Shown in pieces: positions 6,394 to 46,224 of a DNA stretch of 64,000 bases. A program made the translations under genes and the position numbers. The DNA comes from Candidatus Omnitrophota bacterium. Lineage in GTDB: Bacteria; Omnitrophota; Gorgyraeia; Zapsychrales; Zapsychraceae. The stretch lies in contig JAJDCA010000018.1 in the NCBI GenBank assembly GCA_029261055.1, forward strand, positions 18,197-82,196, given 5' to 3'. Within the stretch, counting starts at the first letter, position 1; every line of letters begins with the position of its first letter. The notes beneath the pieces were generated by a model, which was given only the letters and a program-made list of their open reading frames with translations, was not told the DNA's origin and searched no databases.

Positions 6394-6486
6394 GGATTAT
6401 CCTCCTTAATTAAATACGACCTCGCAAAAAATGCTCGGTATTTATGTGTCGCGTCACGCGCGACGAGCCACTTTAAAATTAACTCA

Positions 6487-9857: not shown

Positions 9858-12032
9858 CTATTTTATCAATCTATTAATATACCCTTGATCAACATTATAC
9901 CCAAAAGATTTAGCTTTTAGGGCATCTTGCAAGGCTTTTTCTCTCTGATTTTTTGCTTTATAAATCAAAGATCTTTTATAATATACCAAACCGTTTTGAG
10001 AATTCAACTTTATTATATTATTATAATCTTTTAATACATCTTCCATCCGATTCATTGCTAAATAAATATTGGCTCTTTGCCAATAGGCCCCTTCAAACCT
10101 GGGATTCATTTGAATGACTTTATCATAATCCGCTAACGCGAGCTGATATTTCCTTGTATTAAAATACGCAATGCCCCTATTGTAATACGCCTCCCAAAAA
10201 TGGGGGTTTAACTTTAAGGCATTTTTATAATCCTCTAAAGCGAGGGCATATTTTTTCATTTCAACATAGGCCGTACCTCTATTGCTGTAGGCCTTGATAT
10301 ACGTCGGGTTGATTTCCAGGGCTTTATTGTAATCGGCTAAAGCCGCATCATACTGTCCTTGTATTTTGTAAATGACACCTCTATTGCTGTAAGCGTCCTC
10401 TAAACGTGGATTGATTTCAATCGCTTTGTCATAGTCCGCCAAAGCCAAATTATTTTGTCCCATATGCCGATAGGCATTGCCTCTATTATTGTAGGCCTCA
10501 TCAAAATCAGGATTAAGCATTAACGCTTGATTAAAATTTTCTAAAGCGGTGTTGTATTGTTTTTTTGCACCGTAAGCCACACCCCGATTATTGTAAGCCT
10601 TAGCATGTTGCGAATCGATCGTAAGCGCTTTTGTGAAATACTCAATCGCTTGATTAAAATTACCATGCCTCAAAAAAGCCCCGCCCAAATTCATATGCGG
10701 CCTCAGCCTATGAGGTGATTTTTTCAATACGTCCTGCCAAAGAGTTACGCCATCCTGCCAAACGCTATTTCTCTGAAATGTTAAAAATGAACATGTCCCT
10801 ACAATCAAACTCAATACAATGACATATTTTTTGTAATCTTTCATCACATGCCGTAATCCCACCACCAACGCTATGGCAAAACCAACCATCGGTAAATAAA
10901 GCTTGTGTTCAAATATAACGTGACGTCGGGGAATAAAATTAGGTGCCAGCGTGAAAACAAACCAAAACATACCAAAAGCCATAAGTGTATTATATTTTTT
11001 AAACCTGATCGCAGCGACTAAAACACCTATCCAAGTGATCAAACTCAAACTCGTTGATAAGTCAAAAATATTTTGCGATAAAGAAAAATCATAATCGGGA
11101 TTCAAACCTATGGGGAAAAAAGAAATCCGCAAAAAAACCATCATCACGCGAAATTGCGTAAGAACATATTTTCCAAAAGTAATAACGTCTCCTACATGAG
11201 ATTCGGACATCTTCTGCGCGAACAACATACTCTTAACATTAAATGAAAATACTGCAGGAATGATAAGACAAAATAATAGTATCGTCCCCCAACCATACAC
11301 AGACCTCCGAGGTCTGTGTGCGGTTTCAGATGGCCGCAAAAACATAAACTCAATTAACAAAATCATCAACGGCAATGTAATCACAATCTCTTTCGTAAAC
11401 ATGCCAAGCACACCTGCAACAACGGCCCCGATAAAAAAATAATATTTGTACAGACGTGCCGATGCATCCTCCCTACCTTTCATGTACAAACACACGGCAA
11501 GAAGATAGAACATCGTCGCTAATGAAGCAAAACGTTGTGTAACATACGTCACCGCTTGCGTCTGCACTGGATGAGCGACGAAGATCAAAGCGACAAACAA
11601 TGCGACGGTCGAACCGTAAACAGACCTCGGGGGTCTGTTTGTAATTTTTTGTTGCAAACAGACCCCCGAGGTCTGTTTACGGCTTAAATTCCCCACAAGC
11701 ATCCCCACCAGCCACCACACCAACACCCCGCTCATTAAGTGAATCACCACGTTCGTCACATGATATCCGAAAACATCCAATTGATGAAAATGATAATTAA
11801 GGGCAAAAGAATAAAATGCCACAAAACGGGACGGTTGACTGAGCATACCCCATATCGAATCAAGGTGTGTAACATCACGAATGGCAGGATTACTGACGAT
11901 AAATATCAAGTCGTCAAAAACAAACTCATTTCGAAAAGTATTTGAATAAAGACCGATACCTAAAAAACATATCAGTAAAATAGGAAGAATTCTTGAGATA
12001 AAAATATTACTTATTTGGGGTGACTTCATCAA
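9858..12032 (-). CDS. Paralog 1 of 12: polytopic membrane PMT/TMTC-like (DUF1736-type, putative GT-C glycosyltransferase) protein with C-terminal TPR repeats
   Basis: N-terminal FVFDD...SQPSRFVAFYSFALNYHFH followed by more than 8 hydrophobic helices, then tandem 34-aa TPR units (AYNNRG..Y...G.Y..AL.DY.KAL.INP). Start uncertain; the ORF overlaps the next paralog. Confidence 0.6.
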   Translation of the reverse strand: MMKSPQISNIFISRILPILLICFLGIGLYSNTFRNEFVFDDLIFIVSNPAIRDVTHLDSIWGMLSQPSRFVAFYSFALNYHFHQLDVFGYHVTNVVIHLMSGVLVWWLVGMLVGNLSRKQTSGVCLQQKITNRPPRSVYGSTVALFVALIFVAHPVQTQAVTYVTQRFASLATMFYLLAVCLYMKGREDASARLYKYYFFIGAVVAGVLGMFTKEIVITLPLMILLIEFMFLRPSETAHRPRRSVYGWGTILLFCLIIPAVFSFNVKSMLFAQKMSESHVGDVITFGKYVLTQFRVMMVFLRISFFPIGLNPDYDFSLSQNIFDLSTSLSLITWIGVLVAAIRFKKYNTLMAFGMFWFVFTLAPNFIPRRHVIFEHKLYLPMVGFAIALVVGLRHVMKDYKKYVIVLSLIVGTCSFLTFQRNSVWQDGVTLWQDVLKKSPHRLRPHMNLGGAFLRHGNFNQAIEYFTKALTIDSQHAKAYNNRGVAYGAKKQYNTALENFNQALMLNPDFDEAYNNRGNAYRHMGQNNLALADYDKAIEINPRLEDAYSNRGVIYKIQGQYDAALADYNKALEINPTYIKAYSNRGTAYVEMKKYALALEDYKNALKLNPHFWEAYYNRGIAYFNTRKYQLALADYDKVIQMNPRFEGAYWQRANIYLAMNRMEDVLKDYNNIIKLNSQNGLVYYKRSLIYKAKNQREKALQDALKAKSFGYNVDQGYINRLIK
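11297..11319. repeat. 23-bp perfect palindrome, site 2 of paralog 1
   Basis: acacagacctc c gaggtctgtgt; encodes HRPRRSVYG. Confidence 0.8.
11614..11682. repeat. In-frame hairpin cassette, site 1 of paralog 1 (27-bp perfect stem, 15-nt loop)
   Basis: ccgtaaacagacctcgggggtctgttt / gtaattttttgttgc / aaacagacccccgaggtctgtttacgg; encodes NRPPRSVYGS loop. Confidence 0.85.
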
Positions 12033-14616
12033 AATATCGTTGATTAACTTGATAACCTAAAGATTGTGCCATAAGGGCATCCTCAAGAGCTTTTTCATTA
12101 TCACCTTTACTCTTATACGCAAGCGACCGTGCAAAATACCCCATACCTATCGTAGGGTTGATCTTTAAAAATTGCGTAAATTCTTCAATCGCCAGGTCAA
12201 ACTCCCCTCTTTCCCCATAAATGTTCCCCTTATTAAGATAGGTCACATAATTATTAGGATCAATATCCACCGCCTTATTAAATTCTTCTAAGGCCAAATC
12301 ATACTGTTTTTGCATTTTATAAATAACACCGCGGTTATTATAGGCCATCGCGTATTGTGGATTTAGTTCAACCGCTTTTGTGTAATCCTGCAAAGCCTTA
12401 TCCAGCATACCTTTTGATTTGTACACGACACCACGATTATTGTAAATTTCGCTGGCGTTTGGATCTATTTCCAAAGCCTTATCACAATTGGCCAAGGCCA
12501 AATCATACTGTTTCGTAGACTCAAACAAAACACACCGATTACTGTAAGACTCCATATATGTAGGATCAATCTCCAAAGCCTTGTCAAAATCATTCAAGGC
12601 GTCTTCATACTGACCTCTCATTTTATAAATAACACCACGATTATTGTAGGCCATAACATACTGAGAATCAATCTGGATGGCTTTATTGTAGTCCAAAAGA
12701 GCCAAATCATATTCTCCCTTTTTCTCATAAATAACGCCGCGGTTATAATACGCCTCTGTAAACCTAGGGTTAATACTCAAGGCCTTCTTGTAATCTTCAA
12801 GGATCAAATCATACTGGCCGGTTTCTTCATAAAGATTACTGCGGTTGCTGTACGCTTCTTCAAAATCAGGGTCGATCGCTAATGCTTTGTTAAAATCTTT
12901 AAGAGCCAACCCATGATTACCTTTTTTTTGATACACAATTCCCCGATTATTGTATGTTTTCACATAACTTCCATTAAACTCCAACGCCTTATTGTAATCA
13001 TCTAATGCCAAATCATCCTTATCCAAAGCTTCATAAACCACACCCCGGTCATTGTAAATTTCCGCAATGCTTGAATCCAAAGACATAGCTTTATTCAAAT
13101 CGGCAAGTGCAAGGTCATATTGTTTTTTATGACGATACGCATTCCCTCGATGATTGTAGGCCATGGTGTATTGACCATCCATTTCAATCACTTGGGTAAA
13201 ATGATCAATGGCATCGTCATATCGATCATATTCCAAATAAGCACTGCCTAAATTAATTTTCGGCCGTAACCGATTCGGCGATTTCTTCAAGGCATCCTCC
13301 CATAATGTAATGGGTGTCTGCCAAACCTTATTTCTTTGATAAGTCAAATAAGACAATATGATAAGAAAAATGCTCATACCTACGACAAATTTTTTAACGT
13401 CGCGAACATACTGAAAAAAACCAACACTTAAAACTAAAGAAAACCCAACCATAGGCAAATAAAGCTTGTGTTCAAAAATAACATGCCGCCGGGGAATAAA
13501 ATTTGGCGCTAAAGCCAGAAAAAACCAAAAAATCCCAAAAGCAATTAATAAACGCCGGGCCTTTATCTTCACGGCAAAGAGGAGACTGCCCATTACTAAA
13601 AGAAAACTTAACAACGTAGGCCATTCAAAAAAACTTTGGGACAATGGAAAATCATAATCGATATTCTGCCCCATCGGGAAAACGGCAAGCCGCAGAAAGG
13701 TTACCATCACACGAAACTGTGTCATCACATATTTCCCAAACGTAATCGTATCTCCTATGTGCGATTCCGACATTCGAGATGCAAACAAAGCATCTGAAAT
13801 ATTAAAAGAAAATACCGCGGGGATAATAAGCAAAAAAACCAAAACAACACTTATCAAAATTTTATTAACATGCTTCTTCTTGCTTTGGGCATCATAAAAA
13901 AACAAACCCTCAATTAAAAGAATCATCAAAGGCAAAGTAATGACAATTTCCTTAGAAAACATACCTAAAACAGCCGCCACAGCCGCTCCGAAAAAATAAA
14001 ATACAGACCTGCGACGCTTAGCCACCAATCGTCCGCTATCAGGCGTCAATATTTTAACTTTTTCTGAAGGCTGATGCCTGATGCCTGATATCTGACGCAT
14101 ACGCCCACTCACATACAAACAGACCGCTAATAAATAAAACAAGGTCGCTAAAGAAGCAAATCGTTGCGTAATATACGTCACCGCCTGCGTCTGCACCGGA
14201 TGGGCTACGAATATCAAGGCCGCAAACAACGGAATACTCGAACCGCCTCCGAACCTCGGGGGTTCGGATTTCCGAACCCCCGAGGTTCGTTTACGGTTAA
14301 GCGTCTCCATAAGCATCTTCACAAACCACCACACAAGCGTGGCCGTTATTAAATGAATCAGCAAATTTGTCAAATGATACGCAAATGCATCCAATTTATG
14401 AAAATGATAATTCAACGCAAATGAATAAAAAGCAACAAAACGGGACGGCTGACTGAGAAGATTCCAAATTTCTTTAACATTGCCTAAATTCTGAATAGGC
14501 TTATTGTTAACAATAAAAGGAATGTCATCAAATTGAAATGTGCTATGCAGCGTATTAGAGTAAAGAACGGCTCCTAAAAGCCATATGAGAAGAATAGGCC
14601 AATATTTTTTAATCAT
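12007..14616 (-). CDS. Paralog 2: PMT/TMTC-like membrane domain + TPR repeats
   Basis: Same architecture; TFQFDD, SQPSRFVAFYSFALNYHFH; about 14 TPR units. Confidence 0.6.
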   Translation of the reverse strand: MIKKYWPILLIWLLGAVLYSNTLHSTFQFDDIPFIVNNKPIQNLGNVKEIWNLLSQPSRFVAFYSFALNYHFHKLDAFAYHLTNLLIHLITATLVWWFVKMLMETLNRKRTSGVRKSEPPRFGGGSSIPLFAALIFVAHPVQTQAVTYITQRFASLATLFYLLAVCLYVSGRMRQISGIRHQPSEKVKILTPDSGRLVAKRRRSVFYFFGAAVAAVLGMFSKEIVITLPLMILLIEGLFFYDAQSKKKHVNKILISVVLVFLLIIPAVFSFNISDALFASRMSESHIGDTITFGKYVMTQFRVMVTFLRLAVFPMGQNIDYDFPLSQSFFEWPTLLSFLLVMGSLLFAVKIKARRLLIAFGIFWFFLALAPNFIPRRHVIFEHKLYLPMVGFSLVLSVGFFQYVRDVKKFVVGMSIFLIILSYLTYQRNKVWQTPITLWEDALKKSPNRLRPKINLGSAYLEYDRYDDAIDHFTQVIEMDGQYTMAYNHRGNAYRHKKQYDLALADLNKAMSLDSSIAEIYNDRGVVYEALDKDDLALDDYNKALEFNGSYVKTYNNRGIVYQKKGNHGLALKDFNKALAIDPDFEEAYSNRSNLYEETGQYDLILEDYKKALSINPRFTEAYYNRGVIYEKKGEYDLALLDYNKAIQIDSQYVMAYNNRGVIYKMRGQYEDALNDFDKALEIDPTYMESYSNRCVLFESTKQYDLALANCDKALEIDPNASEIYNNRGVVYKSKGMLDKALQDYTKAVELNPQYAMAYNNRGVIYKMQKQYDLALEEFNKAVDIDPNNYVTYLNKGNIYGERGEFDLAIEEFTQFLKINPTIGMGYFARSLAYKSKGDNEKALEDALMAQSLGYQVNQRYFDEVTPNK
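14038..14098. repeat. Heptamer (ctgaNNN) repeat / inverted-repeat cassette, site 0 of paralog 2
   Basis: ctgatgc ctgatgc ctgatat ctgacgc preceded by an inverted copy (cgctatcaggcgtca); encodes PSEKVKILTPDSGRL. Confidence 0.55.
14249..14289. repeat. In-frame hairpin cassette, site 1 of paralog 2
   Basis: ccgaacctcgggggttcgga tt tccgaacccccgaggttcg; encodes SEPPRFGG. Confidence 0.8.
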
Positions 14617-16981
14617 GCATTAACTCCCAAATCTTTAAACGTTGTTGTTCGGCAGGAACAAAACCTGGTTTAAGCTCCAAAACTTTTTCAAAACTTTTTA
14701 AAGCCTCTGGATATTTCTCTAAATTTATAAAAACAATGCCCTTATTGTAATACACTTCCAGGAAATCAGGATTAATTTCTAAAGCCTTCGCATAATCCGC
14801 CAGCGCAGCCTCATATTCTTTTTTCTCCACATAAGCCGTGCCCCGATTACTGTACGCCTGCGCATAGTTAGGATTAAGCGCTATGGCTTGTGTGTAATCC
14901 GCCAGGGCTAAATCATATTGCCTCTTCTTTCCGTAAACAATGCCGCGGTTATAATAAACGGTTTCAAATCCAGAATCAAGCTCTAAGGCTTTATTGTAAT
15001 CTGCTAAGGCTAAATCAAGTTGGCCCATTTTTTCATACACAAGCCCACGATTACTGTAAGAACTTTTATCATCCGGATCAAACGCCAAAGCTTTTTGATA
15101 ATCCGTTAGCGCCTTATCAAACTTTCCCTGTTTTCCGTACACAATTCCCCTGTTCCCATAGGCTTTAGCATAGTTCGGATTAATCGCCAACGTCTTTTCA
15201 TACTCCTGTAAAGCTAAATCAAATCGGCCTTTTTTTTCATAAATAATCCCGATGTTATTGTACACTTCTTCCAGGCCGGAACGCGATGCCAGGGCTTTTT
15301 GATAATCCTTAAGGGCCAAATCATATTGGCCTCGCTGCCTAAAAATATTCCCACGATTATTAAAAATTTTGATGGAATCCGGTGTAAGCTCAAGCGCATG
15401 ATTAAAATCTGCCAGCGCCAAATCATACTGACCCATTTGATCGTACACAACGCCTCGATTACTGTAGGCCTCAGCATAATTGGGCTTAAGCTTTAAAGCC
15501 TGATTATGGTCGACGAGCGCAAGATCATACCGCCGCTTTTTTTCATGAACAACACCCCGATTTGTGTAGGCCTGCGCATAATATGGATTAAGACTTAAGG
15601 CCCGATCATAATGTTTAAACGCCAAAGAATATTCATTACCTTGAAAATACGCACTCCCCAAATTATTATGCGCCCTGGCTTTATTCGGCGATTTATGGAC
15701 GACGTCTTCCCACAAATTTATTTCATTACGCCAAACTTGATTTCTCTGAAACGTCAGATAAGACAATGTCACAATAATAAGACTAATCGTAACCATGCAC
15801 TTTTTAGGATTTTTAAAAATCTGAAACATCCCCCCACACATGAACAAGGCCGCCCCCACCATCGCCAAATAAAGTTTATGTTCAAAAATAACATGCCGCC
15901 GAGGAATAAAGTTTGGTGCCAAGGCAATAAAAAACCAAAACAGCCCAAAGGCCGCTAACATATTACGTTTGCGCAACCAGAATATCAACCACCCCATGAT
16001 GCCCAAAAGAAATACAAAACTCAAAAACGTCGATCCTTCAAAAAAAGTTTGAGACAACGGAAAATCATAATCTGCATTCTGCCCGATAGGAAAAAGGGTA
16101 AGTTTGATAAATGTCGTCATCACCCTAAACTGCGTCATCACATATTTACCAAATGTAATGACATCGCCGTAATGCGATTCCGACATCTTTTGTCCAAACA
16201 CTACGCCCTTAATGTTAAAAGAAAATACGGCCGGGACAATAAGACAGAATAATAAAATCGGAATCACATACCGTCGTTTTGCTTTTAGAAAAAAATACTC
16301 AATCAAGAGAATCATCAATGGCAAAGTGATAACGATTTCTTTGGTAAACATCCCTAATACCGCAGCAATCGCAGCACCTAAAAAATGTACAGACGCGATT
16401 AATCCTGCCTTGCCGGCAGGCAGGCGCGTCTCTACGCCTCGCCCTTTAATGTAAAAACACAACGAAAGCAAATAAAACATCGTTGCCAAAGAAGCAAACC
16501 GCTGTGTAATGTACGTCACCGCCTGCGTCTGCAACGGGTGCGCCACAAAAATCAACGCAACAAAAAGAGCAACACTCGAACCGTACACAAACCTCGGGGG
16601 TTTGTATGGGTTTAAACCCATACAAACCCCCGAGGTTTGTGTACGGTTACCGCGCTTCACAAGCATCCCCACCAACCACCACACCAACACCGCCGTGGTC
16701 AAATGAATCACCAAATTCGTCACGTGATACCAAAAAGCATCGTACTGATGCACATGATAATTCAGCGCAAACGAATAAAACGCTACAAACCGTGACGGCT
16801 GACTCAGCATATTCCAAAGACCAGAAACATTACTGATGTCTCGAATCGCCGGATTCCCCAGAATAAACTGATGATCATCAAAATGAAAAGCCTCGTGCAA
16901 CGTATTCGCATACACCACCGCACCTAAAAGGCAGATCAAAACCACCGGAAACCAATTTTTAATTTTTTGGGATATTACCAT
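14609..16981 (-). CDS. Paralog 3: PMT/TMTC-like membrane domain + TPR repeats
   Basis: AFHFDD, SQPSRFVAFYSFALNYHVH; TPR array. Confidence 0.6.
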   Translation of the reverse strand: MVISQKIKNWFPVVLICLLGAVVYANTLHEAFHFDDHQFILGNPAIRDISNVSGLWNMLSQPSRFVAFYSFALNYHVHQYDAFWYHVTNLVIHLTTAVLVWWLVGMLVKRGNRTQTSGVCMGLNPYKPPRFVYGSSVALFVALIFVAHPLQTQAVTYITQRFASLATMFYLLSLCFYIKGRGVETRLPAGKAGLIASVHFLGAAIAAVLGMFTKEIVITLPLMILLIEYFFLKAKRRYVIPILLFCLIVPAVFSFNIKGVVFGQKMSESHYGDVITFGKYVMTQFRVMTTFIKLTLFPIGQNADYDFPLSQTFFEGSTFLSFVFLLGIMGWLIFWLRKRNMLAAFGLFWFFIALAPNFIPRRHVIFEHKLYLAMVGAALFMCGGMFQIFKNPKKCMVTISLIIVTLSYLTFQRNQVWRNEINLWEDVVHKSPNKARAHNNLGSAYFQGNEYSLAFKHYDRALSLNPYYAQAYTNRGVVHEKKRRYDLALVDHNQALKLKPNYAEAYSNRGVVYDQMGQYDLALADFNHALELTPDSIKIFNNRGNIFRQRGQYDLALKDYQKALASRSGLEEVYNNIGIIYEKKGRFDLALQEYEKTLAINPNYAKAYGNRGIVYGKQGKFDKALTDYQKALAFDPDDKSSYSNRGLVYEKMGQLDLALADYNKALELDSGFETVYYNRGIVYGKKRQYDLALADYTQAIALNPNYAQAYSNRGTAYVEKKEYEAALADYAKALEINPDFLEVYYNKGIVFINLEKYPEALKSFEKVLELKPGFVPAEQQRLKIWELMHD
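16391..16432. repeat. ATTAAT-centred palindrome interrupted by a nested palindrome, site 0 of paralog 3
   Basis: agacgcgattaatc [ctgccttgccggcaggcagg] cgcgtct; encodes ETRL-PAGKAG-LIASV. Confidence 0.7.
16581..16646. repeat. 66-bp perfect palindrome, site 1 of paralog 3
   Basis: ccgtacacaaacctcgggggtttgtatgggttt|aaacccatacaaacccccgaggtttgtgtacgg; encodes GLNPYKPPRFVYG. Confidence 0.85.
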
Positions 16982-19499: not shown

Positions 19500-19503
19500 T
19501 AAA

Positions 19504-23989: not shown

Positions 23990-24105
23990 GCAGCTAAAAC
24001 ATAAAATAGAAAAATTTCAGAAGCTGTTAGGATAGAACAAACTCGTGTTTAGCATCGGGGAATTTCATGCTACAGCCCTCTTCCTTCAATAGCATCTCTC
24101 CGCTC

Positions 24106-26655: not shown

Positions 26656-26690
26656 GCTTTATACCAATTCCAATAAATAATTACCAAAAA

Positions 26691-26766
26691 TTACTCTCGG
26701 TTTTCTCGAACGCTTTTACGAAAGAGACAACTCTGGTAGGATTGTCTCCTAGAATGCCGAGAGTAA
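26691..26766. promoter_or_regulatory. Compound hairpin in the 121-bp spacer between paralogs 8 and 7
   Basis: Outer arms ttactctcgg / ccgagagtaa flank an inner hairpin gagacaactctggtaggattgtctc. Confidence 0.35.
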
Positions 26767-26776
26767 ATCAGAAAAA

Positions 26777-28585: not shown

Positions 28586-28688
28586 TGTTTAAAGTTTAGA
28601 GATTCTGCTTATGATGTCAAGAAGAAATACGGCCAGAACTCCCCGAAAGCCCTAAAATAAACGGCAGTTGCGTGATAGGCAAATAGAA

Positions 28689-30611
28689 TTAATTTTGTGC
28701 TGCCACCGCTTTTTCGCGATTATCTTTAGCTTCTTGATTGGTAGGGTCGATTTGCAGGGCTTTATCAAAATCTTCAATAGCTAAATCAAGGCGGCCGCTG
28801 AGGCCGTGGGTCGCGCCGCGGTTGTTGTACGCCTGCAGGTAATTCGGCTTAATGGCTAAAGCTTGCGTGTAATCTTTAATGGCTAAATCGTATTTTTCCT
28901 TTAATCTTAATGTGTTTGCTCTATTGTAATAAGCTTCAGCGTAGTTGGGCTTAATCCTGATGGCACGGCTAAAATCAGCAATGGCCAGATTGTGGCGCGC
29001 CTGCAATCCATACACAAAACCGCGGTTATTAAATGCCTCATAATAATCACGATTAATTGTCACCGCCTTTGTAAAATCCGTAACGGCTTGATCGTAATCA
29101 TGCAGCTGATGATGCACATTGCCTCTATTATTGTAGGCCTCAGAATATTCGGGGTTAATGATGAGCGCCTGATCCAAATAATGCTTCGCCTGGGCATAGG
29201 CCCCGCGACTTAAATACGCGCAACCCAAATTAAAATGCGGTCGCGCTTTTTGGGGCGACTTCGCTACGACATCTGCCCACAAGGCCACTGGATCAGCCCA
29301 AATTTTATTACGTTGCACCGTCAAATAGGCAAAGACGGCAATGATCACGCAACATACTGCTACGTACTTTTTAATATTCTTCATCACCGCAAAAAGCCCT
29401 GCGCTTAGCGCAATAGAAAACCCGACTAACGGCAAATAAAGTTTGTGCTCAAAAATAATATTACGCCGCGGAATAAAATTGGGTGTCAGTGTCAGAAGAA
29501 ACCAAAATAGGCCAAAAGCCACCAGAGGATGCCGTTTGCGTATTTTCCAGGCAGCCACCAGGAGGCTGAAAATCAGGACGATGCTCAACAGAACCGACCA
29601 TTCAAAAATACTTTGCGACAAAGCAAAATCATAATCCAAATTTTGCCCGATGGGAAAAAGCGTTAGGCGAATAAACGTCGCCAACACACGAAACTGCGTT
29701 AGGACGTAAGGCCAAAACGTAATCACATCCCCAACGTGCGACTCCGACATTTTTGCTCCAAATAATAATCCGGAAATATTAAAAGAAAATACGGCGGGAA
29801 TGATTAGACAAAACAACAGTAGACAAACCGTAAACGAACCTCGTAGGTTCGGAAATCCGAACCTACGAGGTTCGTTTAGGGTTAACTCCACCCAAATAAT
29901 AGTCAACGGCAACGTAATCACAATTTCTTTAGTAAACATACCCAGAATAGCGGCAACGGCAGCTCCAAGAAAATAAGGAATACGTCTCCAAGTTTTAGTC
30001 ATCCGTCGTTTGTCATCAGTCGCCAGTATTTTGGCTTTTTCTGAAAGCTGAAGACTGACGTCTGATAGCTGATGGCTAACACGTCCCTTCATGTAAAGAC
30101 ACACCACCAACAAATAAAACATCGTCGCCAAAGATGCAAATCGCTGCGTAATGTACGCTACGGCTTGAGTCTGTACAGGATGACACAAAAAAATCAACGC
30201 GGCAAACAACGCGACGGTCGAACCGTAAACACACCCCGGGGGTCTGTTTACGGTACAAGACCTCAAACAGACCCCCGGGGTGTGTTTACGGTTACTAGCC
30301 CCAACAAGCATCCCCCCCAACCACCAGACCAACAGAGCATTAATCACATGAATCACGACATTCGTCATATGGTACCCAAACACATCCAGCCCATGAAAAT
30401 AATAATTCAACGCAAACGAATAAAAGGCCACAAACCTCGACGGCTGCTCCAAATATGTCGCAATCGATTTGACATTCCCTAAACTCCGAATACTTTCATT
30501 AGTGACAATAAAAACTTGATCATCAAATTGGAAAGGCGCCTGCAATGTATTGGCATACATCCATCCCCCTATGATCACAATAAGGGCGATGGCTAAAAAT
30601 TTCTTAATCAT
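28689..30611 (-). CDS. Paralog 9: PMT/TMTC-like membrane domain + TPR repeats
   Basis: PFQFDD, EQPSRFVAFYSFALNYYFH. Start refined to MIKKF (ATG 30611), preceded by GGAGG. Confidence 0.6.
   Translation of the reverse strand: MIKKFLAIALIVIIGGWMYANTLQAPFQFDDQVFIVTNESIRSLGNVKSIATYLEQPSRFVAFYSFALNYYFHGLDVFGYHMTNVVIHVINALLVWWLGGMLVGASNRKHTPGVCLRSCTVNRPPGCVYGSTVALFAALIFLCHPVQTQAVAYITQRFASLATMFYLLVVCLYMKGRVSHQLSDVSLQLSEKAKILATDDKRRMTKTWRRIPYFLGAAVAAILGMFTKEIVITLPLTIIWVELTLNEPRRFGFPNLRGSFTVCLLLFCLIIPAVFSFNISGLLFGAKMSESHVGDVITFWPYVLTQFRVLATFIRLTLFPIGQNLDYDFALSQSIFEWSVLLSIVLIFSLLVAAWKIRKRHPLVAFGLFWFLLTLTPNFIPRRNIIFEHKLYLPLVGFSIALSAGLFAVMKNIKKYVAVCCVIIAVFAYLTVQRNKIWADPVALWADVVAKSPQKARPHFNLGCAYLSRGAYAQAKHYLDQALIINPEYSEAYNNRGNVHHQLHDYDQAVTDFTKAVTINRDYYEAFNNRGFVYGLQARHNLAIADFSRAIRIKPNYAEAYYNRANTLRLKEKYDLAIKDYTQALAIKPNYLQAYNNRGATHGLSGRLDLAIEDFDKALQIDPTNQEAKDNREKAVAAQN
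29826..29883. repeat. In-frame hairpin cassette, site 2 of paralog 9 (same type as paralog 8 site 2; 1 mismatch)
   Basis: aaccgtaaacgaacctcgtaggttcgga aa tccgaacctacgaggttcgtttagggtt. Confidence 0.8.
30005..30083. repeat. Heptamer ctgaNNN repeat / inverted-repeat cassette, site 0 of paralog 9
   Basis: ...tcatcagtcgccag tattttggcttttt ctgaaag ctgaaga ctgacgt ctgatag ctgatgg...; encodes SEKAKILATDDKRR. Confidence 0.55.
30223..30291. repeat. In-frame hairpin cassette, site 1 of paralog 9 (27-bp stem, loop acggtacaagacctc)
   Basis: ccgtaaacacaccccgggggtctgttt ... aaacagacccccggggtgtgtttacgg. Confidence 0.85.
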
Positions 30612-32631
30612 TCGGTAAAACCTCCATGGCCTTACGCACCCAAGCACGTTGTTGCTGAGCTTTAGCGTAACCGGGATCAATCGCTAAAGCACGGTTGTAA
30701 TCTTCCAAGGCCAAGGCGTATTGTTTTTGGTGTGCATAAATATTACCCCGGTTAAAATACGCTTCTTTAAAATTCAGATTAATCGCAATCGCCTTATTGT
30801 AATCCCACAAAGCTAAATCCTGCAACTGTTGCGCCGCAAAAATACCACCACGATTGCTGTAAGCTTGCGCGTTACGCGGATCTATTTTAATCGCAGCACC
30901 ATAATCTTTAAGGGCCTTTTCATATTGCCCTAAAGAAAAATACACATTCGCCCGGTTAACGTATCGACTGGCATTCGCCGGATTCAAAACAATCGCCGCA
31001 TCAAAATCGACCAAAGCCAAATCATATTTCTTTTGTATCTGATAAATGACCCCCCGGTTATTATGTGCAATAGCCGATTCCGAATCAATCAAAAGCGCCT
31101 GCGTAAAATCAGCCAAAGCTAAATCATAACGTCGTTCCATTTGATAAACAGATCCCCGATTATTGTAGGCCGACACATTATTGGGATTAAGCATCAAAGC
31201 TTGATTGAGATGCGTCAAAGCCAAACCCGTATCCCTCCTCTGCAAATAATACACCTTCCCTAAATTATTATGCGGCCGCGATTTGTGCGGCGACTTTTGT
31301 ACCACATCTTCCCACAACGTAATTTCATTGTTCCAAACTTTATTTCGCTGAAACGTCAAACACGAAAAAATAATAATCACACCAGACACAACGGAAACAA
31401 ACATTCTGGAATTTCTAATTAAAGAATACATCCCTGCTGTCAACGCCAAACACAGCCCAACGCTTGGCAAATACATGCGATGTTCAAATATGACATCCGC
31501 AATCGGAATAAAACTGGACTCCACCGACAGCGTAAGGAAAAACCAAATAATGCCTAGTGTCACAAGCTTATTACGTGTACGCATCCAAATCGCAAATCCA
31601 AATAACACAATACATGTCAGCATACTTAACAAAGTCGGCCATTCAAAAATACTGTACGCCAAAGGAAAGTCATAATCAAGATTCTGTCCAACTGGAAACA
31701 GGAATAATTTTAAATACGTTACCAGCACTTTAAACTGCGTCAAAAAGTACACCGATCGTGTCATTGTCGCCACGCCACTGGCTTCAGACATACTTTCCTG
31801 AGCCAACACTCCCGACAAATTAAACGAATACAAACAAGGAATAATTACAGCAAATGACAATATCAAAACAATGTAATACCATGGGACATCAATAATTCTT
31901 TTCGATCCTTCCCTCCTAAAAAAATAAAACTCCAACACAAGAATCATAAACGGCAGCGTAAACACAATTTCCTTACTGAACATACCCAGCACAGCCGCGA
32001 TCGCAGCTCCCACAAAACGTACAGACGCGATTAATCGCGTCTCTGCACATCGTCCTTTCATGTAAAGACACACCGAAAGCAAATAAAACATCGTTCCCAA
32101 CAGCGTAAACCGCTGCGCAATGTACGTCACCGCCTGCGTCTGCACGGGGTGACACAAAAAAATAAACGTTGCACACAGAGCGACGGTCGAACCGTAAACA
32201 CACCTCGGGGGTGTGTTTTTGATTTTTCGCCGTAAACACACCCCCGAGGTGTGTTTACGGTTAATGCTCCGAACACCCATCCCCACCAACCACCACACAA
32301 GCAAAGCATTAATCACATGAATCCCCACATTCACCACATGATACCCAAACACATCCAACTTATGAAAATGGTAATTCACCGCAAAACTCAAATACGGAAT
32401 CAAGCGTCGCGCCGACACCCCGAGTGTATGATCCATCAAATGCTTCGTCGTATTGGTCCATGCAATTGCAATATTAAAAACATCCCTGATCTGCGGATTT
32501 TCCACAATGACACGCGTATCATCAAAATGGAAAGAACTATGAAAAGTGTTAGCGTAAATAGCTCCGCCTAAAATACAAATAATGAATACAAAAAATAATT
32601 TGTTAATTCTCATATTTAAATATTTAATCAT
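30604..32631 (-). CDS. Paralog 10: PMT/TMTC-like membrane domain + TPR repeats (divergent N-terminal motif SFHFDDTRVIVENPQIRD)
   Basis: Same architecture; shares long near-identical stretches with paralog 11 (SVESSFIPIADVIFEHRMYLPSVGLCLA). Start uncertain: 32631, 32613 or 32685. Confidence 0.55.
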   Translation of the reverse strand: MIKYLNMRINKLFFVFIICILGGAIYANTFHSSFHFDDTRVIVENPQIRDVFNIAIAWTNTTKHLMDHTLGVSARRLIPYLSFAVNYHFHKLDVFGYHVVNVGIHVINALLVWWLVGMGVRSINRKHTSGVCLRRKIKNTPPRCVYGSTVALCATFIFLCHPVQTQAVTYIAQRFTLLGTMFYLLSVCLYMKGRCAETRLIASVRFVGAAIAAVLGMFSKEIVFTLPFMILVLEFYFFRREGSKRIIDVPWYYIVLILSFAVIIPCLYSFNLSGVLAQESMSEASGVATMTRSVYFLTQFKVLVTYLKLFLFPVGQNLDYDFPLAYSIFEWPTLLSMLTCIVLFGFAIWMRTRNKLVTLGIIWFFLTLSVESSFIPIADVIFEHRMYLPSVGLCLALTAGMYSLIRNSRMFVSVVSGVIIIFSCLTFQRNKVWNNEITLWEDVVQKSPHKSRPHNNLGKVYYLQRRDTGLALTHLNQALMLNPNNVSAYNNRGSVYQMERRYDLALADFTQALLIDSESAIAHNNRGVIYQIQKKYDLALVDFDAAIVLNPANASRYVNRANVYFSLGQYEKALKDYGAAIKIDPRNAQAYSNRGGIFAAQQLQDLALWDYNKAIAINLNFKEAYFNRGNIYAHQKQYALALEDYNRALAIDPGYAKAQQQRAWVRKAMEVLPND
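32023..32042. repeat. 20-bp perfect ATTAAT palindrome, site 0 of paralog 10
   Basis: agacgcgattaatcgcgtct. Confidence 0.75.
32192..32260. repeat. In-frame hairpin cassette, site 1 of paralog 10 (27-bp perfect stem)
   Basis: ccgtaaacacacctcgggggtgtgttt / 15-nt loop / aaacacacccccgaggtgtgtttacgg. Confidence 0.85.
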
Positions 32632-34516
32632 ATCCACCCATACAATCTGCGTACATACTTTCAAGCATTTTACCCTTACGATCAATCTCTTTGACTTTAA
32701 CAGTGTTACCCAACGCTTGACAAGTATTCACAAGATGAAGATAAGATTTCTTGAAATCAGGATTTATTTTTAAAGCCTTTTTGTAATATTTCATTGCCAA
32801 TGCATGTTGATGTTTGGCGCCATAAATTAACCCAATATTATCGTAAGTCGTCGTCAAATTGGGATTTAACTTAACCGCCATTTCGTAATCAGCCAAGGCT
32901 TTGTCATACTGCTGCGTAAGATGATATGCCGTCCCTCGATTATTGTACGTTACGGCAGATGTTGGGTTTAAAACCAATGCCCGATCATAATCTCTAATGG
33001 CCAAACCATACCTCCCCTTTTTCTCAAAAAAATGCCCTCTATTGGTGTATGCTTTAACATGGTAAGGATCAATATGTAAGGCCTTATTGAAATGCGCTAG
33101 TGCTAAATCATATTTACTTTCTTTCAAATACGCGGCCCCTAAAATACCGTGACCTCTTGCTTTATTTGGCGATTTTTTCACCACATCTTCCCACAACGTC
33201 ATTTCATTGTTCCAAACTTTGTTTCGCTGAAACGTTAAATAAGAAAAAACAATCACAATCACACACGCAACCGTTACAAGCGCTCTGGAATTTTTTATGA
33301 AAACTAACAGCCCAGCTGTAAACGCCAAACACAGCCCAACGCTTGGCAAATACATGCGATGTTCAAATATGACATCCGCGATCGGAATAAAACTGGACTC
33401 CACCGACAACGTCAGAAAAAACCAAATAATGCCCAACGAAACAAGGCGATGACGTGAAAACAATTTTACGGCTGCACCTAACAATACAACGCACATCATC
33501 ATACTCAAAAAAGTCGACCATTCAAAAATACTTTGCGCCAAAGGAAAATCATAATCAAGATTTTGCCCGACTGGAAACAGGAATAACTTTAAATAAGCCA
33601 ACACCACTTTAAACTGCGTCAAAAAATAAACCGACCGCGTCATCGCCGCCACGCCACTGGATTCAGACACACTTTCCTGAGCCAACACTCCCGACAAATT
33701 AAACGAATACAAACAAGGAACAATTACAGCAAATGACAATATCAAAACAATGTAATACCACGGAACATCAATAATTCTTTTCGATCCTTCCTTTCTAAAA
33801 AAATAAAACTCCAACACAAGAATCATAAACGGCAGCGTAAACACAATTTCCTTACTGAACATACCCAGCACAGCCGCGACAGCAGCCCCCACAAAACGTA
33901 CAGACGCGATTAATCGCGTCTCTGCACATCGTCCTTTCATGTAAAGACACACCGAAAGCAAATAAAACATCGCCCCCAACAACGTAAACCGCTGCGCAAT
34001 GTACGTCACCGCCTGCGTCTGCAGAGGATGACACAGAAAAATCAAGGCTGCACACAAAGCGACTGTCGAACCGTAAACGAACCTCGGGGGTTCGGATTTC
34101 GGGAATTCAGATTTCCGAACCCCCGAGGTTCGTTTACGGTTAAAAATCTTCACCACCATCCCCACCAACCACCACACAAGCAAAGCATTCACCACATGAA
34201 TCCCTACATTCACCACATGATACCCAAACACATCCAACTTATGAAAATGGTAATTCACCGCAAACGTCAAAAACGGAATAAGCCGTCGTGCAGACAACCC
34301 CTGCGTATGCTCAAGCAAATGCTTGGTGGTATCCATCCACACAACCTTAATATTTTGAATATTTCTAATCTGCGGATTCTCCACAATGACACGCGTGTCG
34401 TCAAAATGAAAAGTGCTGTGGAAGGTGTTGGCGTAAATAATAATGCCGAGGCAAACAAGAAAAATAGCAGGAAAAAACTTTTTAATCCCCTGACATAATG
34501 TTAGATGGACTTTCAT
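32624..34516 (-). CDS. Paralog 11: PMT/TMTC-like membrane domain + TPR repeats
   Basis: TFHFDDTRVIVENPQIRN; close duplicate of paralog 10 in the membrane domain. Start uncertain: 34516, 34555 or 34576. Confidence 0.55.
   Translation of the reverse strand: MKVHLTLCQGIKKFFPAIFLVCLGIIIYANTFHSTFHFDDTRVIVENPQIRNIQNIKVVWMDTTKHLLEHTQGLSARRLIPFLTFAVNYHFHKLDVFGYHVVNVGIHVVNALLVWWLVGMVVKIFNRKRTSGVRKSEFPKSEPPRFVYGSTVALCAALIFLCHPLQTQAVTYIAQRFTLLGAMFYLLSVCLYMKGRCAETRLIASVRFVGAAVAAVLGMFSKEIVFTLPFMILVLEFYFFRKEGSKRIIDVPWYYIVLILSFAVIVPCLYSFNLSGVLAQESVSESSGVAAMTRSVYFLTQFKVVLAYLKLFLFPVGQNLDYDFPLAQSIFEWSTFLSMMMCVVLLGAAVKLFSRHRLVSLGIIWFFLTLSVESSFIPIADVIFEHRMYLPSVGLCLAFTAGLLVFIKNSRALVTVACVIVIVFSYLTFQRNKVWNNEMTLWEDVVKKSPNKARGHGILGAAYLKESKYDLALAHFNKALHIDPYHVKAYTNRGHFFEKKGRYGLAIRDYDRALVLNPTSAVTYNNRGTAYHLTQQYDKALADYEMAVKLNPNLTTTYDNIGLIYGAKHQHALAMKYYKKALKINPDFKKSYLHLVNTCQALGNTVKVKEIDRKGKMLESMYADCMGGYD
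33902..33921. repeat. 20-bp perfect ATTAAT palindrome, site 0 of paralog 11
   Basis: agacgcgattaatcgcgtct. Confidence 0.75.
34069..34141. repeat. In-frame hairpin cassette with internal partial duplication, site 1 of paralog 11
   Basis: aaccgtaaacgaacctcgggggttcgga tttcgggaattcagattt tccgaacccccgaggttcgtttacggtt; encodes KSEFPKSEPP (duplicated KSEP). Confidence 0.8.
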
Positions 34517-36935
34517 TATTGATTTGATATCCCAAAGATTGCGCCTTAAAAGCATTTTGCTGGGCCTGGGAAGCATTCCCCATTGCTTTGTAAATTAAGG
34601 CACGCTGGTAATAGGCCCCAGCATATTTCGGATTGATCGTTAAAACTTTACCATAATCAGCCAAGGCAAGACGGTATTTTTTCAACTGAGTGTACACAAC
34701 GGCACGGTTGTAATACGCCTCCCAAAAATCCGGATTAATTTTAATCGCTTTATGAAAATCTTTCAAGGCCGCAGCATGCTGCTTCAAGGCCAACTGAACC
34801 AATCCTCTATTATTGTACGCTCTCAAATACGATGAATTAATTTTAATAGCCTGGCTGTAATTTTCCAAAGCCGCGGCGTAATCTTTTTTTAATGTGTACA
34901 CAAGCCCACGATTACTCAAAAATTCTTCCTTTTTATTAGGAGACTGCCTTAATGCCTGGGTGTAATCAACCAAAGCTAAATCATATTGCCCTTGCGCTTT
35001 GTACATATTGCCCCGGTTACTGTAAAACTGGGGCATGTCCGGATTAATCGTAATCGCCTGCTTAAAATCCGCCGTCGCCAAATCATATTGACGTTTAACT
35101 TTGCGAATAATCCCGCGATTACTGTACGCCGACGCTAACAAAGGATCATTTTTAATCGCTTTATTGTAATCACTCAACGCCTGATCATACCGCCTTTGAT
35201 CCTTGTAAAAATTCCCGCGATTATTGTACGACTCAGCATTGTTGGGATCCAATTGAATACTTTGATTAAAATCTGCCAAAGCCAAATCATGCAGCCCCTT
35301 CTTTTGATACACAACGCCACGATTGTCATACCCTTTAACATTGCCAGCATCCATTTCAATGGACTTCGTCAAATATTCAAGAGCCAAATCATATTCACCT
35401 CTGGCAAAATAGGAATATCCTAAATTAAGATACGGCCGCATCTTACCGGGAGATTTCCGAACAACATCACTCCACAAAGAAACTGCATTTTGCCACACCC
35501 TGTTTCTTTGAATCGTTAAAGAAGAATAGACACTCAAAATAATCAACATGCTAACCACACATTTCTTTTTATTATTAAAACTTAAATACAATAAACACGG
35601 TAATATCATACAAAACCCGATGGATGCTAAATACAATTTATGCTCAAAAATAATATGCCGCCTTGGCACCAAATTGGCTGCCATCGTCAGGAAAAACCAA
35701 AATATCCCAAAAGAAATCACCGCATGCCGATGCCTTAATCTCATTGCTAACATTACCAACCCCGTCAAAAAAACAAAACTCAACACAACCGGCCATTCAA
35801 AGATTCCTTGCGACAATGGAAAATCATAATCAAGATTTTGCCCGATGGGAAAAACCAATAAACGAATAAAAACCACAAAAACACGTGCTTGCGTTAAAAA
35901 ATATTTCCCAAACGTAATCACATCCCCCGCATGCGACGCCGACATCTTTGGCCCGAACAATATCCCGAAAACATTAAACGAAAAAACGGCGGGGATGATC
36001 AAACAAAACAATAATAAAAATACCCAACCGTAAACCGTAAACACACCCCGGGGGTCTGTTTGAGGTCTTGTACCGTAAACAGACCCCCGGGGTGTGTTTA
36101 CGGTTCCAGTCGATCGCAAAAACATAAACTCAACAAGTAAAATCATCAAAGGCAACGTAATCACAATTTCTTTGGTGAACATCCCAAGGACAGCAGCCAC
36201 CGCAGCTCCGAAGAAATAAAAAATGGGCCGCCAATTCTTAGACGTCAGTCGTCTGCTATCAGCTGTCAGTATTTTGTTTTTTTCTGAAGACTGATGACTG
36301 ATGGCTGATGACTGATAGCTAATACGTCCCTTTATGTAAAAACACAACGAAAGTAAATAAAACAATGTCGCCAAAGACGCAAACCGCTGACTAATGTACG
36401 TCACCGCCTGAGTCTGAACAGGATGGGCCACAAAAAGCAATGCGGCAAACAAACCGTAAACGAACCCAGAAAGTTTGCGTTCGCAAACTCTCACGGTTCG
36501 TTTACGGTTAAAAGTCTTCACCAACATCCCCACCAACCACCACACCAACAAAGAATTAACCACATGAATCACAAGATTCGTCACATGATACCCAAAAACA
36601 TTTAACCCATGAAAATGATAATTTAACGCAAAGGTGAGAAAAGCGACATAACGTGAAGGCTGGCCGAGAATACTGCCAAACGTAGTAATATTTTTGAAAT
36701 CTTTAATGTAAGAATTACCAGCAACAAATTTTACATCATCAAATTGAAAAGGACTGTGGAGGGTATTTGCATAAAGGGCAACACCAAGAAGGCCTATGAC
36801 AAAAAAATAGTGACAGAAACCGTTTTTTAAAAAACCTTCACTTATTTTCTTAAAAAAGGGTCTGTCACTATTTTTTTGGCTGAACAATTTTTTGGGCCAA
36901 TCTCTTAATTCAAATAATTTTTTAACTCTGTCCAA
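34482..36935 (-). CDS. Paralog 12: PMT/TMTC-like membrane domain + TPR repeats
   Basis: PFQFDD, GQPSRYVAFLTFALNYHFH; about 12 TPR units; long N-terminal extension. Confidence 0.6.
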   Translation of the reverse strand: MDRVKKLFELRDWPKKLFSQKNSDRPFFKKISEGFLKNGFCHYFFVIGLLGVALYANTLHSPFQFDDVKFVAGNSYIKDFKNITTFGSILGQPSRYVAFLTFALNYHFHGLNVFGYHVTNLVIHVVNSLLVWWLVGMLVKTFNRKRTVRVCERKLSGFVYGLFAALLFVAHPVQTQAVTYISQRFASLATLFYLLSLCFYIKGRISYQSSAISHQSSEKNKILTADSRRLTSKNWRPIFYFFGAAVAAVLGMFTKEIVITLPLMILLVEFMFLRSTGTVNTPRGSVYGTRPQTDPRGVFTVYGWVFLLLFCLIIPAVFSFNVFGILFGPKMSASHAGDVITFGKYFLTQARVFVVFIRLLVFPIGQNLDYDFPLSQGIFEWPVVLSFVFLTGLVMLAMRLRHRHAVISFGIFWFFLTMAANLVPRRHIIFEHKLYLASIGFCMILPCLLYLSFNNKKKCVVSMLIILSVYSSLTIQRNRVWQNAVSLWSDVVRKSPGKMRPYLNLGYSYFARGEYDLALEYLTKSIEMDAGNVKGYDNRGVVYQKKGLHDLALADFNQSIQLDPNNAESYNNRGNFYKDQRRYDQALSDYNKAIKNDPLLASAYSNRGIIRKVKRQYDLATADFKQAITINPDMPQFYSNRGNMYKAQGQYDLALVDYTQALRQSPNKKEEFLSNRGLVYTLKKDYAAALENYSQAIKINSSYLRAYNNRGLVQLALKQHAAALKDFHKAIKINPDFWEAYYNRAVVYTQLKKYRLALADYGKVLTINPKYAGAYYQRALIYKAMGNASQAQQNAFKAQSLGYQINNESPSNIMSGD
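36035..36103. repeat. In-frame hairpin cassette, site 2 of paralog 12 (the paralog 9 site-1 element in inverted orientation)
   Basis: ccgtaaacacaccccgggggtctgttt gaggtcttgtaccgt aaacagacccccggggtgtgtttacgg; the loop is the reverse complement of the loop at 30250..30264. Confidence 0.85.
36241..36325. repeat. Heptamer ctgaNNN repeat with inverted copy, site 0 of paralog 12
   Basis: gtcagtcgtctgctatcagctgtcag tattttgttttttt ctgaaga ctgatga ctgatgg ctgatga ctgatag; encodes SEKNKILTADSRRL. Confidence 0.6.
36452..36509. repeat. Nested-palindrome cassette, site 1 of paralog 12
   Basis: aaccgtaaacgaacc cagaaagtttgcgttcgcaaactctca cggttcgtttacggtt. Confidence 0.75.
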
Positions 36936-39283: not shown

Positions 39284-39360
39284 CCCCTTAATGGGCATGA
39301 TAAATCATGCCCCTACAAACGACACTCCTCGTACGGGCATGATTTATCATGCCCCTAAAA
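39284..39360. repeat. Two intergenic REP-like hairpins (gggcatgat NN atcatgccc) between GH15 and the BatC-like gene
   Basis: ccccttaatGGGCATGATaaATCATGCCCctac ... cgtacGGGCATGATttATCATGCCCctaaaa. Confidence 0.75.
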
Positions 39361-41378: not shown

Positions 41379-41396
41379 AATTTAAAAACCATTAAC

Positions 41397-41442
41397 GCAC
41401 CTCGTAGGTGTAATCGCACCTACGAGGTGCGTTTATTTACGG
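41397..41442. terminator. Intergenic hairpin between the two vWA genes (17-bp perfect stem)
   Basis: aacgcacctcgtaggtg taatcg cacctacgaggtgcgtt followed by tatttacgg; shares the CCTCGTAGG core with the site-2 cassettes. Confidence 0.4.
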
Positions 41443-43102: not shown

Positions 43103-43109
43103 AAATAGT

Positions 43110-46212: not shown

Positions 46213-46224
46213 CTCCAATTTTTT

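Follow-up and report, generated by a model that had tools for sequence, protein, structure and literature searches.

In-frame palindromic cassettes with the architecture of REP doublets in a tandem membrane protein family of a Candidatus Omnitrophota bacterium

In a 64,000-nt stretch of the genome of a Candidatus Omnitrophota bacterium (GenBank assembly GCA_029261055.1, contig JAJDCA010000018.1, positions 18,197 to 82,196; hereafter the window), each of 12 tandem paralogs encoded on one strand (G1 to G12) carries, at the same point of the same loop, a translated DNA cassette that folds back on itself almost completely. How did near-perfect palindromes come to lie in the coding sequence of every member of this array, and what keeps their arms complementary? 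In-frame palindromic DNA in proteins is textbook knowledge only for Rickettsia, and repetitive extragenic palindromic (REP) sequences and their hairpin-forming inverted doublets (REPINs) are defined as extragenic. The cassettes are best read, with a probability of about 0.7, as REP/REPIN-like mobile hairpins that were fixed in-frame in tolerant loops and apparently spread among the paralogs by gene conversion or transposition. The analysis shows directly the anatomy of the cassettes, the constraint on their DNA, their presence at two sites with use of two frames and either orientation, further copies in spacers and other genes, and the conflict between cassette and gene relationships, whereas the mode of spread, the correction of the arms and a part played by a REP-associated tyrosine transposase (RAYT) are inferred.

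Anatomy of the cassettes and constraint on their DNA

The principal insertion point (site 1) lies between the segments ..LVWWLVGML.. and ..ALFAALIFVxHPVQTQAVTY of all 12 paralogs. An earlier note on this DNA had placed a hairpin there in all 12 genes and had stated that the reading frame was kept; an inverted repeat was indeed found at the homologous point in 12/12 paralogs (cassette size, 58-73 nt; perfect stems, 19-35 bp), and 12/12 cassette-bearing open reading frames (ORFs) remain open. The coordinates given earlier were right within a few bases and the stem lengths slightly too short, and the perfect pairing claimed for all cassettes holds for most of them, G2 and G6 having a 3-nt internal mismatch each and G12 being decayed, with 89% complementarity. 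The window contains 31 occurrences of the core ACCYCGKRGGT (0.07 expected) and 16 loci at which a perfect stem reaches 12 bp or more (0 in 20 shuffles), which excludes chance. Folded as RNA, the cassettes reached -39 to -67 kcal/mol (median of 80-nt segments of the array, -14.6), and their stems are by far the most stable structures across the 27-kb array. Cassette-bearing proteins recur in independent assemblies, namely an NCBI metagenome-assembled genome (MAG), Logan contigs L001 and L003, and an ENA sample.

The basic unit is a hairpin of ~30 nt, CCGTAAAC-NN-ACC / 5-nt loop / GGT-N'N'-GTTTACGG, in which C-N-N-A-C-C is followed by a loop of TCGGG, CCGGG or TCGTA and then by G-G-T-N'-N'-G. 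In the majority of copies two such hairpins stand inverted to each other, and this doublet folds over its full 58-73 nt as a single long stem. Inverted units and spacer amount to 34+5+34 nt in the 73-nt form and to 28+2+28 nt in the 58-nt form. Cassette lengths (58, 60, 70 and 73 nt) differ in multiples of 3 except for the 60 nt of G5, where the palindrome of the 58-nt type has gained one base on either side. The sub-loop polarity of the G7 cassette (CCCGA first), shared by G8, is opposite to that of 9 of the 11 other site-1 cassettes; the core of the G12 copy is too decayed for polarity scoring.

Sixteen cassettes, two of them from a related organism, were aligned for covariation. The long stem was paired in 97.8% of cells, with changes on both sides in 16 of 28 pairs (reached in 0/500 shuffles), and slid registers of the alignment gave 24-49% pairing. 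Nested 8-bp local hairpins in each arm were paired in 86.7% of cells and covaried at the NN positions, so that two inverted short palindromes combine into one long hairpin, the hallmark of a REPIN. The long palindrome is stricter than the local hairpins: the G9 site-1 and G12 site-2 cassettes have mismatches in the local stem but a perfect long stem. When the peptide of each cassette was re-coded synonymously 20,000 times with the codon usage of the array, the maximum number of paired positions was 19-29, and every cassette (24-35 observed) exceeded its own maximum. The conserved unit is DNA and not peptide, and both the compensatory differences and the DNA-level nature of the palindrome put forward in the earlier note were borne out.

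Sites, reading frames and copies elsewhere

In a second loop (site 2), doublets are found in G8, G9 and G12 and a monomer in G1, and the other 8 paralogs lack a cassette at this point. Compared as reverse complements, the G9 site-1 and G12 site-2 cassettes match at 73/73 positions, although they lie in different genes and loops and are translated in different frames and orientations; at G12 site 2, no orientation other than the one in use is free of stops. The frame at site 1 is always AAC-CGT-AAA (NRK...VYG) and that at site 2 is ACC-GTA-AAC (TVN...FTV), the same cassette DNA giving unrelated peptides in the two. Stop codons are absent from all frames of the GC-rich core, and the third frame, closed by TAA within the CCGTAAAC arm, is never used. 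Since only the two frames not closed by the arm TAA are in use, selection has kept only in-frame, stop-free copies.

The cassettes were not simply added to the loops, as had been supposed earlier. In ~110 homologs from other Omnitrophota, which lack the cassette, the site-1 interval is unconserved in sequence and measures 29-38 aa (mode 33), compared with 37-46 aa in the window paralogs; the loop of the latter without its cassette is ~22 aa, and the cassette therefore replaced ~11 ancestral residues. The site-2 elements of G8 and G9 stand in place of 14 codons found in G3 and G5. The 12 ORFs are intact, and an AlphaFold model of G5 (mean pLDDT, 91) shows the cassette as coil (pLDDT ~72); thus, as with Rickettsia palindromic elements (RPEs), an in-frame palindrome supplies peptide without gene disruption.

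Nucleotide identity among the paralogs is 55-75% (third positions, 45-64%), with the exception of G10/G11 at 80-97%. Even so, identity between diverged paralogs runs longest in the cassettes (75 nt in G7/G8, 72 nt in G5/G6 and 40 nt in G2/G6, compared with at most 36 nt elsewhere), and the G7 and G8 cassettes are identical at 72 of 73 positions against 61-88% in their flanks. The closest pair, G10/G11, carries different cassette subtypes, and A-type (GTAAAC) and B-type (GTCTCC) arms are mixed in G2 and G6. The C-terminal half of the membrane domain of G10 and G11 belongs to another subfamily ('SVESS..EHR'), the other members of which are without cassettes, and these two proteins are nearest to the window paralogs only between sites 1 and 2, over few columns, which suggests that this segment is a conversion tract. 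Because cassette relationships conflict with gene relationships, the cassettes appear to have been exchanged or replaced. Inheritance with conversion among tandem paralogs explains the occupancy of site 1 in every gene at least as well as the targeting of this locus by the element, one of the two possibilities put forward in the earlier note.

Copies of the element were also found outside site 1: in addition to the second loop, they occur in an intergenic spacer, in other gene families and in other organisms. Ferrochelatase P0122 has a linker identical at 20/20 aa to the G8 site-2 peptide (cassette-peptide search at the protein level). In a related organism, a different TPR protein (P0121, contig L097) contains two copies and the gene for a 526-aa membrane protein on the same contig another, giving three to four copies in two other genes. 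A syntenic ortholog (contig L002, ENA sample; order GH15, PG-binding gene, paralog) bears perfect palindromes at sites 1 and 2, and its outer arms differ from the window arms by paired changes. A 13th paralog from the sample of the window itself (contig L098) carries an imperfect three-core cassette at site 1; a core match in a peptidase M20 gene of that contig was rejected as a lone chance occurrence with no hairpin. In spacers of metagenome Ga0066640, monomers with identical arms (AACCGTAAACCAACC-CCGGG-GGTTGGTTTACGG) were present, one of them overlapping a stop codon, and in Omnitrophota MAG S014_49 same-core doublets lie 3' of genes beside terminator hairpins. Thus relatives in other Omnitrophota and in Ga0066640 are extragenic, whereas 16/17 copies in the window are in coding sequence. 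Copies beyond the 17 of the window were thus seen on contigs from its own sample as well as from a relative. Logan contigs from the source sample break at the cassettes, as is expected of repeats.

Table 1. Array, cassettes and other palindromic elements of the window (positions counted from its first letter).
Feature	Position	Form	Details
Tandem array of 12 paralogs	9858..36935	minus strand	N-terminal multi-pass membrane domain with FxFDD, C-terminal TPR domain
G1 site 1	11612..11684	73 nt	stem 28 bp (31 bp with 1 mismatch); peptide SRKQTSGVCLQQKITNRPPRSVYG; RNA dG -57.3 kcal/mol
G2 site 1	14241..14298	58 nt	stem 19 bp; outer arms chimeric, A-type (GTAAAC) and B-type (GGAGGC)
G3 site 1	16579..16648	palindrome perfect over 70 nt	RNA dG -64.0 kcal/mol
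G4 site 1	19109..19181	73 nt	stem 29 bp; CCGGG core
G5 site 1	21644..21703	60-nt perfect palindrome	stem 29 bp; B-type arms; followed by ACGGTT duplication
G6 site 1	23581..23638	58 nt	stem 19 bp; chimeric B/A arms
G7 site 1	26256..26328	73 nt	stem 34 bp; RNA dG -66.7 kcal/mol
G8 site 1	28177..28249		stem 29 bp (34 bp with 1 mismatch); 72/73 nt as in G7
G9 site 1	30221..30293	73 nt	stem 29 bp; exact reverse complement of G12 site 2
G10 site 1	32190..32262	73 nt	stem 29 bp; subtype unlike that of G11
G11 site 1	34069..34141	73 nt (58-nt type + 15 central nt)	stem 28 bp
G12 site 1	36452..36509	core decayed	arms 89% complementary; RNA dG -38.6 kcal/mol
G1 site 2	11290..11326	monomer hairpin	peptide ETAHRPRRSVYGW
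G8 site 2	27857..27914	58 nt	TCGTA core; other open frame, giving LTVNEPRRFGNPNLRGSFTV
G9 site 2	29826..29883		98% identical to G8 site 2, orientation inverted
G12 site 2	36033..36105	73 nt	reverse complement of G9 site 1; different frame, giving TVNTPRGSVYGTRPQTDPRGVFTV
Intergenic doublet, same family	41391..41436	AACGCACC-TCGTA-GGTG .. CACC-TACGA-GGTGCGTT	between two VWA-domain genes
G2 site 3	13972-14112	other family
G3 site 3	16361-16450	other family
G7 site 3	26050-26127	other family
G8 site 3	27980-28048	other family
G9 site 3	29949-30092	other family
G10 site 3	31993-32061	other family
G11 site 3	33872-33940	other family
G12 site 3	36192-36335	other family
G4 site 2	18795-18814	CGCGATTAATCGCG-type hairpin	peptide EPRLIAAL
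G7 fourth insertion	25504-25635	~35 aa	AVVGNLFSRSGKPKSGYHLTRAQIATQREKKILYG
Doublet in 1072-aa ORF	56234-56296	GTAGGGGC-type	ORF 53745-56963, minus strand
Spacer single hairpin	46186-46213	GTACGGGCGGTTCGCGAACCGCCCCTAC
Spacer single hairpin	52715-52742	GTACGGGCGGTTCGCGAACCGCCCCTAC
Spacer hairpin family	39288-39359
Spacer hairpin family	52146-52230
Spacer hairpin family	43108-43169
Spacer hairpin family	6433-6470
Spacer hairpin family	47237-47264

Origin of the cassettes and rival explanations

REPINs are described as hairpins made of two REPs facing in opposite directions, in which compensatory changes are frequent (PMC3337134, PMC3116915). Like REPINs and doublets of bacterial interspersed mosaic elements (REP-BIMEs), the cassettes consist of two inverted short palindromic units forming one long hairpin, their spacer is unconserved except for pairing, with common compensatory changes, no target-site duplication was seen, monomers and doublets are both present, related copies lie in spacers beside terminators in other Omnitrophota, and in an Acidobacteriota MAG a RAYT passing its cut-off was found ~35 nt away from a doublet with the same core. 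They differ in that REPs are extragenic by definition and 16/17 window copies are in-frame in genes, in being shorter than the 89-nt Pseudomonas REPIN, and in that no flanking hairpins of the family were found at the Y1 genes read in Omnitrophota, RAYT Y1 transposases being what mobilizes REPINs. RPEs are palindromic selfish DNA lying in-frame in ORFs, where they add a tolerated peptide segment (review PMC10969869, citing Ogata et al. 2000). The analogy with RPEs drawn in the earlier note proved apt, as by description they share in-frame palindromic DNA in ORFs and copies in genes and spacers; RPEs, however, are ~100-150 bp and occur in many unrelated genes of Rickettsia, whereas the cassettes are 58-73 nt, have REP-doublet architecture, belong to Omnitrophota and cluster in three loops of a single tandem family, where both orientations and two frames occur. 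The phenomenon is thus known from RPEs and is met here with REPIN architecture, in Omnitrophota. Cyanobacterial small dispersed repeats, ERIC, BOX and Correia elements are very small hairpin repeats that can nest and occasionally lie inside ORFs; by general description they share nesting, which is seen at site 3 of G3 and in P0121, and they belong to other sequence families and other phyla; repeats of this kind are mentioned in PMC3116915. A full-text literature search with 10-mers of the core returned only unrelated primers and constructs, and no paper on palindromic repeats of Omnitrophota was found.

On the preferred reading of REP/REPIN-like mobile hairpins, elements would have been fixed within the genes of a multi-pass membrane family with TPR tails, in the segments coding for three short loops, site 1 probably being occupied early in the lineage, and the element would now make up nearly the whole loop. 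Cassettes may later have been swapped among tandem paralogs and with genome copies elsewhere by gene conversion or by template switching at the shared arms, with transposition as a possible further route. Complementarity of the arms would be due to the youth or replacement of copies and to the correction of imperfect palindromes by template switching. Quasipalindromes are known to become perfect in this way (PMC7202029), so that arm matching needs no selection on structure, and nothing in the data requires a functional role for the stems, whether as the recombination hot spot, the mRNA structure or the means of loop diversification suggested in the earlier note.

Several observations weigh against this reading. 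No Y1/RAYT gene was found in the 64 kb of the window, and the small hairpins in the flanks of the RAYT-like gene of Omnitrophota (contigs L099-L103) are others, none of them of the cassette family. In the window, 16/17 copies are in-frame inside a single gene family. Clean transposition would not produce the replacement of loop residues. Matches to the 11-nt core across phyla may partly be chance, given the many hairpin stems in 185,000 genomes (own estimate). Finally, the occupancy of site 1 in all 13 paralogs (12 plus that on L098) and in the syntenic ortholog could reflect structural selection.

That last point leads to the alternative that the hairpins are selected mRNA or DNA structures, which might act in decay control or as an RNase III site, make translation pause after a membrane helix, or bind a protein. 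The filling of site 1 in 12 paralogs, in the 13th (L098) and in the ortholog on L002, stems of -39 to -67 kcal/mol where the array median is -14.6, strong covariation, and the position of all three occupied loops directly after membrane helices fit such a role. Covariation, however, would arise just as readily if arms were corrected or fresh copies took the place of old ones, ~110 homologs function without such a stem, size, spacer, orientation and subtype vary freely, the G12 copy is decaying, the element is also found in unrelated genes and spacers, and a scan of the window at Rfam gathering scores gave 0 matches to curated RNA families. Selection on structure is accordingly considered unlikely.

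A single ancient insertion before the family expanded, followed by vertical descent only and by co-evolution of the arms through template switching, would account for a site and frame common to all copies and for the cassette of the syntenic ortholog, and the correction of quasipalindromes on which it draws is established (PMC7202029). It is nevertheless quite unlikely and already largely contradicted: a G9 site-1 cassette that is the exact reverse complement of G12 site 2, G7/G8 cassettes with a single difference in 73 nt between flanks of 61-88% identity, different subtypes in the closest paralogs (G10/G11), chimeric arms in G2 and G6, the origin of G10/G11 in a different subfamily whose other members are cassette-free, and the presence of the peptide or element in ferrochelatase and other genes all argue against descent alone.

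The earlier note had proposed, as one possibility, a MITE-like (miniature inverted-repeat transposable element) hairpin family; behavior like that of a small dispersed or mobile hairpin element is supported, a MITE in the strict sense is not. A classical MITE, derived from an insertion sequence (IS) of the DDE type and bounded by terminal inverted repeats and a target-site duplication, would likewise be short, non-coding, palindromic and present in several genes; but direct repeats flank none of the 15 copies examined, no parent IS was seen in the window, the entire element is the stem of two small hairpins rather than inverted ends around an unrelated core, and 58-73 nt is below the typical size of MITEs, so that this origin is very unlikely. 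That the palindromy is a by-product of selection for a Pro/Arg-rich peptide or an assembly artefact is hardly credible, for although the peptides resemble each other between paralogs, 0/20,000 synonymous re-codings matched the observed pairing in any cassette, the same DNA in two frames gives unrelated peptides, and independent assemblies yield the same cassette-bearing proteins.

On the preferred reading, a protein family with 12 members in Omnitrophota owes whole loops to REP-doublet-like elements, the same DNA serving in two frames and both orientations. The array offers an unusually clear natural series for the passage of selfish hairpin DNA into protein (empty site, monomer, doublet, nested and decayed copies), which is also informative on how the arms of a palindrome keep matching over time. 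For annotation and assembly of uncultivated phyla it is a warning that contigs break at cassettes and that odd Pro/Arg/Gly peptides are repeat-derived. If a transposase link or cassette swapping were shown, REPIN biology would be extended into coding sequence. A wider proposal, held to be doubtful, is that REP/REPIN-type doublets are a regular source of protein loop segments in Omnitrophota and Patescibacteria (candidate phyla radiation, CPR), which might pass as discrete cassettes from one paralog loop to another, perhaps through the conserved single-copy RAYT-like transposase of Omnitrophota; the array would then be a loop-diversifying, cassette-swapping system of a membrane enzyme family. 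Elements of this kind may have entered even essential genes, as palindromes with the same core are in-frame in CPR ORFs for ATP synthase alpha and in GatB-like and UvrB-like ones.

Transposase genes, host proteins and other hairpin families

A frameshifted Y1 gene lies at 6369-6830 of contig L097 (coverage, 2x), 0.4 kb from P0121, and its best NCBIfam match was 'REP-associated tyrosine transposase' (64 bits against a cut-off of 80). It belongs to an Omnitrophota clade of single genes of ~210 aa with conserved synteny between two giant genes, which suggests a domesticated, vertically inherited transposase and not an active IS200 element. The giant gene downstream (L099-L103 and L097) encodes a CLIPPER domain. 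The Acidobacteriota RAYT mentioned above (contig L021) scores above the NCBIfam cut-off and comes from a MAG with many such doublets. The link between RAYT and the cassette family is circumstantial, plausible but unproven.

Doublets of the core were matched in Acidobacteriota, Chloroflexota and other phyla. An interpretation of these matches as a pan-bacterial element was judged unsafe and dropped, because any hairpin holding an 11-mer yields the doublet pattern automatically; only multi-copy families and the enrichment in Omnitrophota and CPR are meaningful among them. Multi-copy same-core doublet families were seen in Acidobacteriota MFD06229.bin.2.89 (L021 and ~20 loci), Vicinamibacterales SMAG_U11776 and Anaerolineae AnMBR.bin235, and GAAATGACCTCGGGGGTCATTTTACG-N5-CGTAAAATGACCCCCGAGGTCATTTC is an example of a cross-phylum doublet. 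The 11-nt core common to unrelated phyla may reflect common descent, horizontal spread or convergence. ORFs with in-frame ACCTCGGGGGT..ACCCCCGAGGT arms were observed in CPR/Patescibacteria MAGs (L005, 1306-2889; L042, 3236-4795; L057, 4160-5560; L051, 1023-3278). Those on L005 and L042 (the latter recorded as Gammaproteobacteria) encode ATP synthase alpha with the insert AHLGGEARFKSGGHPRGES between DTIINQ and PVICIYVAIGQK, that on L057 is GatB-like and that on L051 UvrB-like, with a homolog of Y1 transposase 1.5 kb away. In Rhodobacterales (L008, L009, L012 and L055; four genera), a core doublet occupies a homologous position in a long Ala-rich ORF (..LTSGVAAxxxTPEV..) and is either a conserved in-frame palindrome or a coincidence of GC-rich coding sequence.

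The array proteins (602-869 aa) have TPR proteins of Candidatus Omnitrophota as their closest database relatives, some of which are named 'protein O-mannosyl-transferase' in source annotations. The membrane domain gave no match in Pfam, and PDB sequence search and Foldseek search with the AlphaFold model gave mainly TPR-domain matches; a putative glycosyltransferase identity is based on the source annotations and the FxFDD motif. All three hairpin-occupied loops come straight after membrane helices, and from helix order, Lys/Arg-rich loops and the positive-inside rule, sites 1, 2 and 3 are probably short cytoplasmic loops on the side opposite to the FxFDD loop. Diversity-generating retroelements and phase variation were also considered; neither a reverse transcriptase nor a simple-repeat tract was noticed in the array, no search having been aimed at either. 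The fourth insertion of G7 precedes the ..FGIFWFF.. helix and has no evident palindrome, and homolog P0018 has an insertion at the same point.

Three other in-frame hairpin families, one of them nested, occupy the loop after ..YxKGR (site 3). The GTAGAGACGCGATTAATCGCGTCTSTAC family encodes VETRLIASV, and in G3 a second hairpin (CCTGCC..GGCAGG) sits inside it; a repeat of ~75 nt in G2, G9 and G12 encodes SHQxSxxSxQxSEKxKILxxD, and the peptide in G7 is WSVVSDPWSV. Hairpin-type peptides were also seen at the site-3 loop of homologs P0058 and P0111. The CGCGATTAATCGCG-type hairpin, usually found at site 3, lies at site 2 in G4, so that a second family also occupies more than one loop. In the 1072-aa ORF, which has no Pfam match, a different in-frame REP-like doublet (ACGTAGGGGCGGGCCCCCGTGCCCGCCC..GGGCAGCCACAGGGGGCTGCCCCTACGT) encodes VGAGPRARPVKGQPQGAAPT, and single hairpins of its type stand in two spacers. 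Together, the site-3 families and this doublet indicate that in-frame hairpin repeats are a general trait of the genome. The genome is rich in REP-like spacers: further spacer hairpin families (Table 1), several of them doublets after genes, include the types GGGCATGATTxATCATGCCCC, GTCGCGTGAC/CGAGCC and AAAAGTACGTACGCGCGTACGTACTTTT.

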